DNA of 61,208 nt, taken from contig CAZWIT010000002.1 of the NCBI GenBank assembly GCA_964633905.1, positions 1 to 61,208 of the forward strand, given 5' to 3'. A program made the position numbers and the translations under genes. The first letter of the stretch is position 1. Each line of letters starts with the position of its first letter. Of this stretch, positions 1 to 27,537 are shown one piece after another. The notes under the pieces were generated by a model. The model saw only the letters and a program-made list of their open reading frames with translations. It was not told the DNA's origin and searched no databases. Origin of the DNA: an uncultured Gammaproteobacteria bacterium. GTDB taxonomy: Bacteria; Patescibacteriota; Patescibacteriia; UBA1558; GWA2-36-10.

Positions 1-90
1 TGGCGGAAGGTGAGGGATTCGAACCCTCGGAGGTTTTGACACCTCGCACGCTTTCCAAGCGTGTGCACTCGACCACTATGCGAACCTTCC
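1..90 (-). tRNA. tRNA-Ser(GGA)
   Basis: Reverse complement folds as a cloverleaf: GGAAGGT acceptor, CACGC-TTGGAAA-GCGTG anticodon arm, long variable arm, GGTTCGAATCC T-loop, encoded CCA. Confidence 0.97.
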
Positions 91-330
91 AGGATTAACT
101 AATTTTTTAAATGCTTCTCCACTCTTATATTTTTTTATTTGTTTTTCTCTTAACCATGCTTGGTTTTTGTTCGGAAATATTTCTTGATAAACTAATATCC
201 ACGGTCCTTTATTTTTAGTAGATTTATTAGCCCCAGAATTATGATGTTTTATTCTCTGATTAATATCAGAAGTAATACCAATGTAGTATTTTTTTGTTTT
301 TAAACTTTGAATTATATAAACAATACACAT
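76..330 (-). CDS. Solo GIY-YIG nuclease (84 aa)
   Basis: VYIIQS..YYIGIT..R..HN.G..T....PW..VY.E.......LREKQIK motifs. Stop codon TAG lies at tRNA-Ser nt 13-15. Confidence 0.88.
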   Translation of the reverse strand: MCIVYIIQSLKTKKYYIGITSDINQRIKHHNSGANKSTKNKGPWILVYQEIFPNKNQAWLREKQIKKYKSGEAFKKLVNPGRFA

Positions 331-342
331 ACTTTATTTTAA

Positions 343-418
343 GCTTTTCCCGCCTTTGGCGGGACCCCGCCGTAGGCGGTGGCCAAGCGTGTGCACTCGA
401 CCACTATGCGAACCTTCC
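343..418 (-). pseudogene. tRNA-Ser 5' fragment interrupted in the anticodon loop by a 35-nt insert
   Basis: 383..418 is identical to 55..90 (36 bp). AAAGC at 347..343 continues the tRNA sequence after the insert. Confidence 0.9.
348..382 (-). repeat. Double-hairpin mini-insert, copy 1 (CCACCGCCTACGGCGGGGTCCCGCCAAAGGCGGGA)
   Basis: Hairpins CCGCC/GGCGG and CCCGCC/GGCGGG. Homologous to 26967..26999. Confidence 0.85.
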
Positions 419-486: not shown

Positions 487-623
487 CTCTCCCAACTTAG
501 TTTTCCAAAAGACTTAATTTTTAACCTTCGAGGTTGATTTTAAAAAATCCCTATAAATATAATAGATCAAGGTAAAATAGTCAATTTTTCTAGTCTTAAG
601 GCATTTTTTTTGTTATAATATTA

Positions 624-24523: not shown

Positions 24524-26035
24524 TTATGATCTAATAAAATTAAATCCGTAAAATTTAAAATTATTAATTTCACTAATATCAGCTTGATAATAATTTTCAA
24601 TGCAGAGAGCTGAGCAATGCCCCTCTAGGTTTATACCAGTAGGTTTGCTACTAGGGTGTAAATATTCGCCTAAAATAATTATTTTTTTGATAGAATTATC
24701 AAAATAAATTTGATTACTATTTCTTTGCTGATAACGGTAATTTTTAGCTTCAAAATATAGATTTTTGACACCAACTAAGTCATAAATTTTATATTGTGGT
24801 AAATAACTAGATAATATCCGAGCATCATCATATTTATAGCTATTTACTTTTTTTTCTTCATCATAATATTGACCACGCAAGCTAATGATCAAAGTGTCTG
24901 CTGGATTTTGTAATTTAGAAATATATAAATAGGTTTTAATGCGTTTATCATGTTCGGAAGTAGCGGCATAACTTAGTCTATTAATGTCTTTATTTTTGAT
25001 AAAGCTTACGGGGATTATAAAAAAATATATTTCAGCAATTATAATAATAGCAACTATTAGATAAGCGAAATAATGTTGAAATATTTTTTGCCAAAAGTTT
25101 AATGATAATAATAAAACAAGGGGGATTAAAGATAGCATGTAGCCGACAACACCTAGGTGTGAAAAAAAGTAAAAAATTAGTACTAAACAAAATAGAGCAA
25201 TGGTAGTTATGCCGATTAAGCGGTTATTTTTTTTAAATGGACCAGCCAAGATTGGTAATATTATAAATGGCCCAGCTGTTACTATAAAACTTTTATAATA
25301 AAAATTAATTAGATTTTGATCAGTAAAAGTTTTTGTTAAGCTAGAGTATTGGTTTTTTAGGATGGTCAGGTAATTATTTATACCATTTGAAAATACCATC
25401 AAAGGAATCAGCCAAGCTAAGCTTAAGATTACAAAAATAACACTTGCCCATAATCCAAAATATTTTTTTCTTTTTATTAAAAGAAAGTTAAAAAATAATA
25501 AAGGTAGGGAAATAATAATTAGTGATGGCCTAAAACCAATTAAAGTAGCAGTTAAGGCAGTGTGAATTAAAAAGTATTTTCCTTGTTTTGCTGTATTTAT
25601 TTTTTGTAAAAAATATAAACCAAGTAGAGGAGCCAGCACTTCAAAGCTATAAGTCAAAGCCACGCTACGGTAGTGCCAAAAGATAGGATGAAAAATTAAT
25701 ATTAAGGAAATTGCAAAAGCAATTTTGTTGTCATAACTTAGATTTTTTGTAATTTTATAAATCAGTAGCGCGCTTAAAGTGCTTACTAAGGCATTAATAA
25801 AAATAAGAGAAAAATTAATATCACGAAAAATAAAGCTAAAAAGCCAGCCTAAAAATAAAAATAAAGGATAGCCAGGAGGGTGGGGTTGGTAGCTATTAAG
25901 ATCAAAATGTTGAATGCCTAGAGCTAGTTGGGCGCTGTCCCAGGCATAGAGATAATGAGAGGCAAAAAATAAGCTACTAGCAAAAGCTAGTATTATTAAA
26001 CTTAGTTCAGCCTTGTATTTATGCCATGATTTCAT
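24524..26035 (-). CDS. GT-C fold membrane glycosyltransferase (DUF2723/PMT-like)
   Basis: WDSAQLAL..QPHPPGYPLF motif, polytopic. Start moved to ATG 26035 (TGTTATAAT 6 nt upstream); the track's extension overlaps tRNA-Asn. Confidence 0.75.
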   Translation of the reverse strand: MKSWHKYKAELSLIILAFASSLFFASHYLYAWDSAQLALGIQHFDLNSYQPHPPGYPLFLFLGWLFSFIFRDINFSLIFINALVSTLSALLIYKITKNLSYDNKIAFAISLILIFHPIFWHYRSVALTYSFEVLAPLLGLYFLQKINTAKQGKYFLIHTALTATLIGFRPSLIIISLPLLFFNFLLIKRKKYFGLWASVIFVILSLAWLIPLMVFSNGINNYLTILKNQYSSLTKTFTDQNLINFYYKSFIVTAGPFIILPILAGPFKKNNRLIGITTIALFCLVLIFYFFSHLGVVGYMLSLIPLVLLLSLNFWQKIFQHYFAYLIVAIIIIAEIYFFIIPVSFIKNKDINRLSYAATSEHDKRIKTYLYISKLQNPADTLIISLRGQYYDEEKKVNSYKYDDARILSSYLPQYKIYDLVGVKNLYFEAKNYRYQQRNSNQIYFDNSIKKIIILGEYLHPSSKPTGINLEGHCSALCIENYYQADISEINNFKFYGFNFIRS

Positions 26036-26072
26036 GTTGTAATTATAACAAAAATAAGTTAAATAAAAAACC

Positions 26073-26196
26073 ACCAAGCAAGGTTGATGATTTCTTAATG
26101 GCTCCGGCAGAAAATTTGGAGTAAAAAATAATTTTCTGCACTTCGCCAAGATTAAAAAAATACCAACTAAGGTTGATATTCTTTTAATGGCTCCGG
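26073..26196 (-). repeat. Degenerate tandem duplication of tRNA-Asn 3' end plus terminator (89-bp offset)
   Basis: ttaatggctccgg at 26095-26107 and 26184-26196; aaggttgat at 26080-26088 and 26169-26177. Confidence 0.75.
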
Positions 26197-26262
26197 GGGA
26201 GGGATTCGAACCCACGACCAATTGGTTAACAGCCAACTGCGCTACCACTGCGCTACCCCGGA
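26188..26262 (-). tRNA. tRNA-Asn(GTT)
   Basis: GTTGG-CTGTTAA-CCAAT anticodon arm, GGTTCGAATCC, CCA; no intron. Confidence 0.97.
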
Positions 26263-26510
26263 ATAAAATTTTTAATAAGATTTTCTTTTTTATTTTTTTT
26301 CCACTTTTTAATTTGTGCTTCGCGCCTCATAGCCTCTATCTTATTTGTAAATCTTTCAAAATATACTATTTTTACTGGTTTTCTATGCTTGGTGTATTTA
26401 GCTCCATTACCACTATTATGTTTTTCTTCCCTTTGTTTTATGTTAGTTGTGTAGCCGGCATAGAGCGTATTGTCTTTGCAGCGCGCAAGGTAGAAAAAAT
26501 ATTTTTGCAT
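26253..26510 (-). CDS. Solo GIY-YIG nuclease (85 aa, UPF0213/YhbQ-like)
   Basis: FFYLARCKDNTLYAGYT..R..KHNSG.GAKYT..RKPV..VY.E....AMRREAQIK. Stop TAG is tRNA-Asn nt 8-10. Confidence 0.9.
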   Translation of the reverse strand: MQKYFFYLARCKDNTLYAGYTTNIKQREEKHNSGNGAKYTKHRKPVKIVYFERFTNKIEAMRREAQIKKWKKNKKENLIKNFIPG

Positions 26511-26542
26511 ATCATTTTTTGAGGTCGTTTTTGTATATACAC

Positions 26543-26673
26543 AATGTCCTTCGGCTCACTCTGTTCGCTCAGGACATTCGCCTCGTCTTTCTTGATGAGG
26601 GGTTGAGGCACTGAACAAAGTGAAGTGCCGAAACCATGAGCGAGGAGGAATGAAATGACGACGAGTCGAATGG
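26543..26673. repeat. REP-like palindrome cluster on the tRNA-Met 3' trailer
   Basis: gtcc-TTCGGCT-N9-CGCTCA-ggac; ggcac...gtgcc hairpin; 40-bp CCA-TTCGACT-N21-CGCTCA-TGG unit (minus strand) at 26634-26673. Confidence 0.75.
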
Positions 26674-26748
26674 TAGCAGGGGTGGGGGTCGAACCCACGA
26701 CCTCGGGCTTATGAGTCCCACGCTCTAACCAAGCTGAGCTACCCTGCC
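26671..26748 (-). tRNA. tRNA-Met(CAT), elongator type (Ile2 not excluded)
   Basis: CTCATAA loop, paired position 1-72, ends TACCA. Confidence 0.9.
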
Positions 26749-26840
26749 ACGAACTATTCGCTACGCTCAAGTTCGTGGCCAAGCCTCTTGGTTTAATACT
26801 AAGTGGCTGTGCCAAAAACCCGAACGAAGTGAGTGGTTTT
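26746..26840. repeat. REP-like palindromes between tRNA-fMet and tRNA-Met
   Basis: ccacgaact-attcgctacgctca-agttcgtgg; aaaacc-cgaacgaagtgagt-ggtttt. Confidence 0.7.
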
Positions 26841-26916
26841 TGGTAGCGGGAGCCGGACTCGAACCGGCGACCTCCAGGTTATGGGCCTGGCGAGCTGCCA
26901 ACTGCTCTATCCCGCG
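26841..26916 (-). tRNA. Initiator tRNA-fMet(CAT)
   Basis: CGCGGGA acceptor with unpaired C1:T72; anticodon arm CCAGG-CCCATAA-CCTGG. Confidence 0.9.
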
Positions 26917-26945
26917 TCGTAAAAAATTTGGCTTAATAATTCATA

Positions 26946-27006
26946 TGGTCGGGGCGAGAGGACTTGCCACCGCCTTTGGCGGGGTCCCGCTCCGCGGGAA
27001 ACCTCT
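26946..27006 (-). pseudogene. tRNA-Pro-type 3' fragment interrupted in the T-loop by a 33-nt insert
   Basis: Removing 26967-26999 gives AGAGG-TTCAAGT-CCTCT-CGCCCCG-ACCA: a perfect T-arm, acceptor 3' strand and CCA. Confidence 0.85.
26967..26999 (+). repeat. Double-hairpin mini-insert, copy 2 (CCACCGCCTTTGGCGGGGTCCCGCTCCGCGGGA)
   Basis: Same stems and ends as 348..382; only the loop regions differ. Confidence 0.85.
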
Positions 27007-27042
27007 TATTATAAATACAGTAAACCTTGTAAAAACTACTCT

Positions 27043-27119
27043 TGGTCGGGGTGACCCGGCTTGAACGGGCGACCTCACGCACCCCATGCGTGCGCGCTAG
27101 CCAACTGCGCCACACCCCG
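27043..27119 (-). tRNA. tRNA-Pro(GGG)
   Basis: CGGGGTG acceptor; CACGC-ATGGGGT-GCGTG; CCA. Confidence 0.95.
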
Positions 27120-27130
27120 TGGACATTTGC

Positions 27131-27237
27131 TGTGCCCTTCGGCTACGCTCAGGGCATTCGACGACCACTATTCTAATTAAATTTAAGCGGTCGAAGACCA
27201 TGAGCGAAGTTTCACAAAGTGAAACGGAGTCGAATGG
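27131..27237. repeat. REP-like palindrome cluster on the tRNA-Ala 3' trailer
   Basis: gccc-TTCGGCT-A-CGCTCA-gggc; 40-bp CCA-TTCGACT-N21-CGCTCA-TGG unit (minus strand) at 27198-27237. Confidence 0.75.
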
Positions 27238-27311
27238 TGGACCGTACAGGGCTTGAACCTGCGACCTCTTCCATGCCATGGAAGCGCTCTAGCCAACTGA
27301 GCTAACGGCCC
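27235..27311 (-). tRNA. tRNA-Ala(GGC)
   Basis: G3:U70 pair; CTTCC-ATGGCAT-GGAAG; CCA. Confidence 0.97.
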
Positions 27312-27335
27312 TTGTAAAAATTTTGGCGGTAAGAA

Positions 27336-27422
27336 TGGTACCGAAGAGAGGACTTGAACCTCCACGACCTTGCGGTCACTGGATTTTGAGTCCAGCGCGT
27401 CTACCAGTTCCGCCACTTCGGC
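27336..27422 (-). tRNA. tRNA-Leu(CAA)
   Basis: CTGGA-CTCAAAA-TCCAG, long variable arm, CCA. Confidence 0.97.
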
Positions 27423-27537
27423 TCTTGTATGATATATATGTTTATCTAATAAACACAGATGATTTTACAATATAAATAATATAAAGTCAATACTAATACT
27501 TTATATTATTTAGTAATTTTTAGGTTTTAAGTAGCCC

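Follow-up and report, generated by a model that had tools for sequence, protein, structure and literature searches.

Why should a protein-coding gene end inside a tRNA gene? In the window analysed here, 61,208 nt of contig CAZWIT010000002.1 from a genome of the candidate phyla radiation (CPR), two small open reading frames (ORFs) for GIY-YIG nucleases both borrow their stop codons from the tRNA gene that follows them. GIY-YIG gene #2 ends in tRNA-Asn, and gene #1, whose product is 44% identical to that of #2, ends in tRNA-Ser. The initial annotation of the locus explained the arrangement as built-in damping of a potentially toxic nuclease, in which tRNA maturation removes the stop codon of the mRNA. 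Our comparison of both genes with their relatives points to another answer. We consider it probable that both ORFs are selfish, recombination-prone cassettes at the 5' edges of CPR tRNA genes, resembling that of the phage nuclease SegB, and that the overlap of their stop codons is a by-product of the fusion of ORF and tRNA.

The stop codons lie at the positions that tRNAs impose

Gene #2 ends with ATT CCG GGG TAG, and its TAG (26255-26253) forms nt 8-10 of tRNA-Asn, an overlap of 10 nt (written -10 below). Gene #1 ends with GGA AGG TTC GCA TAG, and here the TAG (78-76) forms nt 13-15 of tRNA-Ser, an overlap of 15 nt (-15). Both overlaps had been claimed from the sequence, and on checking the coordinates and codons we found them to be exact to the base. 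The common geometry of the two paralogs, also claimed, is real, but it is explained by abutment alone. An ORF joined directly to nt 1 of a tRNA reads into the tRNA and terminates at the first in-frame stop. In a set of 142 tRNAs, the first stop that any abutting ORF would meet lay at nt 13-15 in 49 cases and at nt 8-10 in 48, the two commonest positions, because the conserved tRNA bases (U8-A9-R10 and A14-R15) supply a TAG, one per frame. The geometry shared by #1 and #2 thus needs no explanation beyond the fact that the ORFs abut tRNAs.

The last residues of the proteins follow the local acceptor stem in the same way. Members of the #1 clade end in GEVA, GRVA, GGVA, GRFA or GCVA, and #2-type proteins in IPG or IPR; where orthologs of #2 face an acceptor stem TCCGAGG instead of TCCGGGG, the protein tail reads ..FIPR instead of ..FIPG. 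The geometry of #2 (-10 at tRNA-Asn) is also present in its orthologs at loci L082, L163 and L164.

tRNA linkage is specific to the small nuclease genes

We assembled 80 loci from species-representative genomes with a #2-type profile and 80 metagenome loci with a #1-type profile, added single contigs for close orthologs of #2, and computed for each ORF the distance from its stop codon to the nearest tRNA. In the #1 clade (51-76% identity), a same-strand tRNA started -45 to +100 nt from the stop, that is, directly 3' of the ORF, in 63 of 76 distinct ORFs, compared with 11 of 357 control ORFs of at least 100 aa from the same loci (Fisher p = 8e-51). Forty-five of the 63 tRNA-adjacent ORFs overlap the tRNA, and 31 distinct ORFs have the exact -15 geometry. 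A scan of junctions, comprising ORFs of at least 60 aa that end -100 to +45 nt from a tRNA start, found tRNA overlap in 41 of 62 GIY-YIG ORFs (66%) versus 3 of 38 other ORFs (8%; p = 5.5e-9). Two of the three overlapping control ORFs are apparently spurious, as they lie over tRNA arrays, and the third is the HNH_3 endonuclease gene of L082 described below. Pure chance or genome compaction is ruled out as the source of the linkage by these control ORFs. The initial annotation had proposed to compare the overlap frequency with that of other tRNA-adjacent ORFs, and the two are clearly unequal; its statement that the gene is tied to the 5' boundary of the tRNA is borne out by a linkage that is conserved, highly nonrandom and specific to small nucleases of this kind.

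The overlap itself is variable. Of the 63 tRNA-adjacent #1-clade members, 18 (~30%) have a stop codon of their own ahead of the tRNA, at a distance of 1-90 nt and in most cases of 1-17 nt, and on the protein tree these own-stop forms (+1 to +17, among them +6 to +13) are interleaved with the overlapping (-15) forms. Similarly, the syntenic copy of #2 at L003 ends 13 nt short of tRNA-Asn. The partner varies too: members of the #1 clade adjoin twelve tRNA species, namely Ser(GGA/CGA/GCT/TGA), Tyr, Pro(GGG/TGG/CGG), Gly, Gln, Glu and Cys. Switching between tRNAs is visible in the tree, in which Tyr is nested three times within Ser(GGA) groups and the Ser isoacceptors are intermixed.

The encoded proteins are solo catalytic domains

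Both proteins match PF01541, with E-values of 6e-19 and 3e-18 (68.6 and 66.5 bits versus a cut-off of 22.6). The catalytic residues Y, Y, G, R, H, N and E are invariant over about 80 homologs (alignments A1 and A2), and the homologs carry names such as Patescibacteria and Parcubacteria, which assigns the window to CPR. The Pfam match spans residues 1-68 and 3-77 of the ORFs of 84-85 aa, and no second domain was found. For both clades the closest solved structures are the UPF0213 proteins BH0048 (1ZG2) and EF2693 (1YWL), followed by SLX1. With the #2 profile these matches reached E-values of 4e-27 for 1ZG2 and 4e-25 for 1YWL, so the earlier remark that this copy resembles the UPF0213/YhbQ family was right. 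The #1 profile gave 1e-11 and 7e-9, and in the tree #1 belongs to a divergent, CPR-specific sister clade of the UPF0213-type proteins. Weak PHROG matches of #1 to phage homing endonucleases were also seen (E 4e-5 to 2e-4). A phage origin was rejected, since the only phage homologs, from Rhizobium jumbo phages at ~40% identity, do not adjoin tRNAs.

Are these simply resident housekeeping or repair genes of the UPF0213 family that sit in tRNA operons and were pushed into the tRNAs by the deletion bias of CPR genomes, with no mobility involved? Gene #2 is a clear member of the family (1ZG2, E 4e-27) and lies in a syntenic arrangement of tRNA-Met, GIY-YIG gene and tRNA-Asn; moreover, the family is widespread and under purifying selection, and CPR genomes are compact. 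However, other tRNA-adjacent ORFs in the same compact genomes overlap the tRNA in just 3 of 38 cases. The UPF0213 genes of Firmicutes do not have a nearby tRNA either: none of about 60 loci has one within 400 nt, whereas the CPR copies usually do, which rules out tRNA linkage as a general property of UPF0213. Compaction also leaves unexplained the tRNA fragments, hairpin insertions, tandem units, hybrid tRNA and varied partners found at these loci, and a deletion bias should clear such remnants. We therefore regard the resident-gene explanation as improbable.

A tRNA remnant and a double hairpin precede gene #1

Upstream of gene #1 lies a second, incomplete copy of the tRNA-Ser gene (Table 1), and it is followed directly by a GC-rich double-hairpin element (DHE). 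Read from 382 to 348, the DHE is CCACCGCC tac GGCGGGG T CCCGCC aaa GGCGGGA. It is succeeded by tRNA nt 37-41 (AAAGC, 347-343), 12 more nt and the ATG, which places the end of the DHE 17 nt from the start codon. More than 60 CPR contigs contain this module of remnant, hairpin, GIY-YIG gene and tRNA, which is found at Ser, Tyr, Pro and other tRNAs. Most #1-clade loci have a partial 5' copy of the same tRNA (nt 1-36 or nt 1-14) 43-90 nt before the ATG. In class B loci, tRNA nt 1-36 are followed by the hairpin; in class A loci, nt 1-14 are followed by a related hairpin, [TC]CACCGCC nnn GGCGGG[AG] CCCCGCT nnn AGCGGTGG; and some loci contain both hairpin classes (L096-L101, L100, L106). The duplicated repeat begins at tRNA nt 1. 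Remnant and adjoining intact tRNA are identical at 36 of 36 positions in 9 of 12 distinct class B loci, whereas from locus to locus the identity over this segment is only 85%, which points to recent duplication or ongoing gene conversion at each locus.

Direct repeats of a tRNA segment around inserted DNA might suggest scars left by genomic islands or prophages that an integrase inserted into tRNA genes, and a duplicated tRNA 3' end is indeed found downstream of tRNA-Asn and of several tRNA-Ser genes. However, the insert measures only ~330 nt, the same module of ORF and hairpin occurs in more than 60 contigs, and what is duplicated is the 5' portion of the tRNA from nt 1, a mirror-image arrangement relative to the att sites of integrases. 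Neither cassette of the window has an integrase or transposase nearby; the neighbors are genes for a major facilitator superfamily (MFS) transporter, a PMT-like glycosyltransferase and exonuclease III. With no recombinase nearby and the wrong half of the tRNA duplicated, we ruled out an integrase island; scars of this kind have next to no probability as an explanation.

The double hairpin is conserved in structure and inherited with the nuclease

An alignment of 29 distinct 36-nt copies of the DHE comprises two adjacent hairpins with 12 pairs, in which 99.1% of the cells are paired. Compensatory changes occur in 4 pairs (27 cells), and the observed covariation score was reached by none of 500 shuffles. 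As a whole, the element is dyad symmetric. A covariance model built for the DHE found only two copies in the 61-kb window, each within a tRNA remnant. In 267 kb of #1-clade loci it detected about 85 sites, almost all of which lie 6-49 nt before the ATG; it found none in 458 kb of #2/UPF0213 loci. This distribution rules out a dispersed repeat of the repetitive extragenic palindromic (REP) or miniature inverted-repeat transposable element (MITE) type. The hairpin class agrees with the protein tree: 44 of 48 nearest neighbors have the same class, compared with a mean of 24 and a maximum of 36 in shuffles. Since the class tracks the protein phylogeny, hairpin and ORF are inherited together. Inspection of the hairpin junctions by eye revealed no target-site duplication.

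Several roles are conceivable for the DHE. It could block re-cleavage of the redundant tRNA copy, it could provide a structured DNA substrate for a nuclease that has no binding domain, it could be a nonautonomous passenger spread by gene conversion, or it could stabilize the 5' end of the mRNA. Independently of its role, the hairpin may have affected the prediction of genes. Some homologs in the databases (P0125, P0139, P0150 and similar entries) have N-terminal extensions, such as VRSLGHRLRRGPASGG. These look like translations of the upstream remnant and hairpin, and hence the start codons were probably called incorrectly.

The precise location of the hairpins in the D-loop, the anticodon loop (between anticodon bases 2 and 3) and the T-loop, with clean junctions and no target duplication, invites the idea that they are intron-like sequences, or parts of split or permuted tRNAs, that are removed from the pre-tRNA, with the GIY-YIG protein as a processing or homing factor. 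The covariation, which indicates selection for a single-stranded fold, would fit this idea, as would the hairpin-bearing copies at L088 and L100, which still have a tRNA 3' half. We nevertheless consider it very unlikely. Nearly all hairpin-bearing copies are truncated and lack either the 3' half or nt 1-14, an uninterrupted copy of the tRNA adjoins in the loci examined, and the insertion positions vary (12/13, 14/15, 24/25, 36/37, 55/56). There was no match to a group I intron or to another Rfam family, and no protein-dependent tRNA splicing of such a kind is known in bacteria. A group I intron or other known RNA family was also rejected directly: three Rfam scans, with gathering or E-value thresholds, returned only tRNAs, and nt 1-36 are duplicated.

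Variant loci point to duplication, displacement and amplification

The module is found in several rearranged forms. Locus L085 has the mirror order, with an intact tRNA-Ser followed after 17 nt by a GIY-YIG gene with its own stop and then by a hairpin-disrupted copy of tRNA-Ser. At L125 the intact tRNA-Pro is also upstream; the downstream copy has its D-arm replaced by the hairpin CCCCGCC gtc GGCGGGG, and the stop of the ORF falls within this disrupted copy. Four copies of tRNA-Ser are present at L129, three of them with hairpins (at nt 12/13, 24/25 and 24/25), and the ORF is fused to a dead copy, with the live tRNA 90 nt further on. Downstream of an intact tRNA-Ser, L100 (2829-3505) contains three near-identical tandem units of 236 nt, in each of which a spacer is followed by tRNA-Ser nt 15-36, a double hairpin and nt 37-88. 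They have the look of a small unit that underwent segmental amplification or was integrated repeatedly. The hairpin-bearing tRNA copies of L100, like those of L088, retain the 3' half of the tRNA.

Relatives of gene #2 are rearranged as well. At L081 the ORF with tRNA-Asn nt 1-14 is followed by a 62-nt insert and a complete tRNA-Asn, and at L165 the ORF ends in a fragment of tRNA-Ala (nt 1-13), which is followed by another hairpin. In L082 (1871-2484), the gene for an HNH_3 endonuclease has a TAA stop codon that forms nt 8-10 of a hybrid tRNA, so that a second family of small nucleases is fused to a tRNA 5' end. The 5' two-thirds of this hybrid resemble tRNA-Lys(TTT), its last 31 nt are identical to the tRNA-Met of the window, and its T-arm looks defective.

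ARAGORN calls a tRNA-Pro at L125:2740-2815 despite the GC-rich hairpin in place of the D-arm, and makes similar calls at L126, L155 and L156. The L125-type call is probably a disrupted pseudo-tRNA, and tRNA finders can therefore be misled at such loci.

These variants bear on the damping proposed in the initial annotation. RNase P cleaves at tRNA +1, and nonstop mRNAs are rescued by transfer-messenger RNA (tmRNA). If damping were the selected function of the overlap, the cut at +1 would remove the stop codon, ribosomes would stall, and tmRNA would mark the toxic nuclease for degradation. The overlap is frequent (45 of 63 tRNA-adjacent ORFs) and conserved (31 ORFs at -15, and the overlap with tRNA-Asn in four genomes). 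Between ORF and tRNA there is no match to a promoter or terminator, and a single promoter-like site upstream of each unit fits co-transcription. In addition, SegB is toxic when overexpressed (PMC13096335). We nonetheless think damping an unlikely reason for the arrangement. The own-stop variants, including L003, are interleaved with the overlapping ones on the tree, and the tRNA-derived tail and stop are kept in front of dead or displaced tRNA copies (L081, L125, L129, L165), where processing by RNase P as a tRNA is not expected. The stop positions are those imposed by any tRNA, and the tail residues merely track the acceptor stem. Furthermore, the first ribosomes could probably terminate normally before the tRNA has been fully transcribed and folded. 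On these grounds, built-in damping by RNase P and tmRNA found no support as the reason for the arrangement. As far as the sequence allows us to judge, loss of the stop after RNase P cleavage is a plausible consequence for the two copies in the window; the cut at +1 would leave a stop-less mRNA and may lower expression as a side effect.

Surroundings of gene #2

The features of the window are listed in Table 1.

Table 1. Features at and around the two GIY-YIG genes of the window
Feature	Position	Strand	Remarks
tRNA-Ser(GGA)	90..1	minus	Intact; 55.2 bits (ARAGORN, Rfam)
GIY-YIG gene #1	76..330	minus	84 aa; CPR-specific clade; last 15 nt = tRNA-Ser nt 1-15
DHE, class B	348..382	minus	35 nt, GC-rich; 55.6 bits, E 2e-10
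tRNA-Ser remnant	383..418	minus	Perfect copy (36/36) of nt 1-36; direct repeat of 55-90; ends after second anticodon base
Promoter-like match TTGACT-17-TATATT	556..584	minus	Upstream of remnant, DHE, gene #1 and tRNA-Ser; consensus match only
Second tRNA-Asn 3' end (CCGGAGCCA) with hairpin/T-run trailer	26064..26107	minus	82% identical to 26153-26196 (repeat family D3)
tRNA-Asn(GTT)	26262..26188	minus	Intact, CCA encoded; 70.9 bits (ARAGORN, Rfam)
GIY-YIG gene #2	26253..26510	minus	85 aa; UPF0213/YhbQ-like solo catalytic domain; last 10 nt = tRNA-Asn nt 1-10
Spacer, tRNA-Met to gene #2	26511..26670	minus	Conserved ~120-nt element: CCA-TTCGACTC..CGCTCATGG..CGAATG[CT]C..GAG..
tRNA array Leu(CAA)-Ala(GGC)-Pro(GGG)-(Pro remnant + hairpin)-Met-Met	26671..27422	minus	Upstream of gene #2, same strand
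tRNA-Pro 3' remnant (AGAGGTT, DHE, CAAGTCCTCTCGCCCCGACCA)	26946..27006	minus	DHE-interrupted, without 5' half; repeat family D4
Second DHE copy of the window	26967..27000	plus	In T-loop of tRNA-Pro 3' remnant; 40.9 bits, E 3e-7
Sigma-70-like promoter match TTGACT-17-TAAAAT	27462..27490	minus	Only one for the array; consensus match only

Traces of rearrangement are also present around gene #2 in the window. The 3' end of tRNA-Asn and its trailer are duplicated 89 nt downstream, a layout shared by L082, and this repeat marks a displaced older end of tRNA-Asn. In the tRNA array upstream of #2, the DHE-bearing remnant of tRNA-Pro sits between tRNA-Pro(GGG) and tRNA-Met. The lone promoter match of the array suggests a single transcript that would run from tRNA-Leu through tRNA-Met and gene #2 to tRNA-Asn. 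The order tRNA-Met, GIY-YIG gene, tRNA-Asn is found in the window and at L003, L081, L163 and L164; at L082 the hybrid tRNA replaces tRNA-Met.

The spacer between tRNA-Met and gene #2 holds a conserved element of ~120 nt that begins directly after the CCA of a tRNA and follows the pattern TTCGACTC .. CGCTCATGGTCTT .. GTCGAATGCC.GAG .. CGArGGGCA, in which TTCGACTC and GAGTCGAA form a long-range helix and a hairpin is terminal. The element occupies spacers that either link two tRNAs or separate a tRNA from a GIY-YIG gene. Other sites are 27120-27234 (minus) in the window, L164:47-200, L165:760-900 and 1357-1400, L003:2420, L006:2602, L009:2891 and L083:2446. A search of Rfam gave zero matches for this post-tRNA element. 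Two structures are present in the spacer between the two tRNA-Met genes (26749-26840, minus), a long inverted repeat (CCACGAACT..AGTTCGTGG) and a second hairpin; its sole Rfam match, to mir-934, is weak and spurious.

On the other side of gene #2, the mechanically listed 574-aa ORF at 24524-26248 (minus) starts within tRNA-Asn. The true start of this gene for a PMT/TMEM260-like glycosyltransferase is most likely near 26035, downstream of the duplicated 3' end of tRNA-Asn.

Discussion

Why, then, do these genes end in tRNAs? Fusions of a nuclease gene to a tRNA 5' end, duplicated and truncated tRNAs, tandem units and hybrid tRNAs all match the outcomes described for SegB, and this is why we favor a SegB-like selfish cassette. 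We propose that the cassette is embedded in a duplicated tRNA, with a broken copy on one side and, on the other, an intact copy that would keep the cell alive. The broken copy is usually a 5' fragment interrupted by the GC-rich double hairpin of 35-36 nt. The borrowed stop codon would then be a structural by-product of the ORF-tRNA fusion together with genome compaction, and the fusion would secure co-transcription from the promoter of the tRNA and co-inheritance with an essential gene. Presumably, the nuclease cuts the DNA of the tRNA gene or of the hairpin, and the unit is spread and amplified by repair of double-strand breaks or by homologous recombination between tRNA repeats. The flanking tRNA fragments could act as the only homology arms that are conserved between genomes.

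Several observations weigh against this proposal. The intact tRNA copy retains every candidate cleavage site, which leaves the immunity of the carrier allele without explanation. The proteins consist of an ~80-aa catalytic domain alone, without the DNA-binding domain that serves site recognition in enzymes of the SegB and I-TevI type. Gene #2 itself has no double hairpin and holds its position between tRNA-Met and tRNA-Asn in at least 6 genomes at 65-74% protein identity. Because of this conserved position, and because it belongs to UPF0213, a family without tRNA linkage in Firmicutes, #2 may be no active element but a gene that has been resident for a long time and is possibly domesticated. 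The composition of the sample matters, too. Every locus was retrieved through its GIY-YIG protein, so the sample holds cassette-carrying loci, and polymorphism for presence or absence, the classic proof of homing, lies outside it. The contigs are metagenomic, and individual repeat-rich regions could be misassembled, although the pattern recurs in more than 60 independent contigs.

A more specific version of the cassette can be entertained as a tentative possibility, namely, a minimal mobile element peculiar to CPR, made up of a GIY-YIG nuclease of ~84 aa, structure-specific like its relatives SLX1 and UPF0213, and a cognate 36-nt, dyad-symmetric double hairpin, that acts on extruded hairpin or cloverleaf DNA, regenerates the tRNA and limits itself. 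Cleavage at extruded structures would explain why the breakpoints coincide with nt 1 of the tRNA and with its D, anticodon and T loops. A unit of hairpin, ORF and tRNA nt 1 to k would invade a tRNA gene and rebuild its 5' part from its own copy; it would use the tRNA promoter of the host, and removal of the stop codon by RNase P would limit its expression.

If the cassette interpretation is correct, CPR tRNA genes are hosts to widespread miniature nuclease cassettes that make tRNA fragments, tandem copies and hybrid tRNAs, and the SegB paradigm of phages extends to cellular chromosomes and to a nuclease without a DNA-binding domain. It would offer a testable clue to what the large, uncharacterized UPF0213/YhbQ family does, and a natural system in which to ask whether tRNA processing governs the translation of an upstream ORF. 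Annotation would be affected as well, since ORFs overlap tRNAs, tRNA finders accept hairpin-disrupted pseudo-tRNAs (as at L125), and gene callers translate the hairpin as an N-terminal extension. In the literature, which we covered incompletely, we found no description of solo GIY-YIG cassettes abutting tRNAs, of the repeats of tRNA 5' fragments or of the CPR double hairpin; this is not proof of novelty.

Comparison with known systems

With UPF0213/YhbQ proteins (COG2827) and eukaryotic SLX1, the CPR proteins share the fold family, the size and the conserved catalytic residues. They differ from the UPF0213 members of Firmicutes, which lack tRNA linkage (0 of ~60 loci). SLX1 requires SLX4 and cuts branched DNA; here, the CPR proteins are compared with it by sequence.

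The islands and prophages of tyrosine integrases resemble the CPR cassette in that direct repeats of a tRNA segment flank the insert and an intact tRNA is regenerated. The cassette, however, duplicates the 5' part of the tRNA and not the 3' part, has no integrase and inserts only ~0.33 kb.

A formal analogue of the double hairpin exists in mitochondria. The double-hairpin elements of Allomyces mitochondria and the GC clusters of yeast are short, GC-rich and mobile, and occupy many sites in an AT-rich, compact genome. Paquin, Laforest and Lang (1994, 2000) reportedly described a GIY-YIG ORF of Allomyces that brought part of atp6 with it and left the displaced fragment behind. The likeness consists in the two adjacent hairpins and in an endonuclease ORF that travels with a fragment of the host gene. 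However, the CPR element resides in a bacterial chromosome and has no sequence relationship to the mitochondrial ones, and whereas the latter are dispersed, the DHEs of CPR are confined to tRNA fragments beside one nuclease clade. Mobile GC-rich hairpin elements of mitochondria are mentioned, for example, in PMC4478555.

Within CPR, insertions in rRNA genes that are neither group I nor group II introns carry GIY-YIG ORFs, often at the tips of stem-loops; the authors judged the GIY-YIG cases to be sparse and probably not spread by homing (PMC11270868). The bacterial group is the same, and in both situations a GIY-YIG gene lies in or beside a structural RNA gene. The difference is that the host gene there encodes rRNA and not tRNA, and PMC11270868 makes no mention of tRNAs.

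The closest parallel is SegB, a free-standing GIY-YIG homing endonuclease encoded in the tRNA cluster of phages T4 and T6. It recognizes the T-psi-C motif of tRNA genes, is inherited together with the neighboring tRNAs and homes with its tRNA region (PMC2330249). SegB drives tandem amplification, dependent on homologous recombination, of a unit of tRNA-Tyr and segB; at the amplified junction, microhomology joins the tRNA 5' end to the 3' end of segB and the ORF is truncated there, and a C-terminal truncation of 28 aa abolished the toxicity of the protein (PMC13096335). There are clear differences between the systems. SegB is longer, and its C-terminal part matters for activity, whereas the CPR proteins comprise 84-85 aa and the catalytic domain only; similarity in sequence is at the level of the superfamily (PHROG, E 4e-5 to 2e-4). 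SegB is found in phages, and GIY-YIG #1 and #2 in CPR chromosomes. A conserved double hairpin and a fixed repeat of a tRNA 5' fragment are absent from the SegB system, and in the wild type its stop codon does not lie inside a tRNA. Its target is known to be the DNA of tRNA genes, whereas for the CPR proteins we infer such cleavage from sequence. In other respects the two systems agree. In both, a GIY-YIG gene lies among tRNA genes and is co-inherited with them, a tandem unit joins the 3' end of the nuclease gene to the 5' end of a tRNA, and the association with tRNAs is statistically strong across many genomes. More generally, the CPR cassettes share with free-standing homing endonucleases a position beside a conserved target gene (directly 5' of a tRNA in 63 of 76 cases), the occupation of twelve tRNA species, flanking duplications of the target, and tandem and mirror forms.

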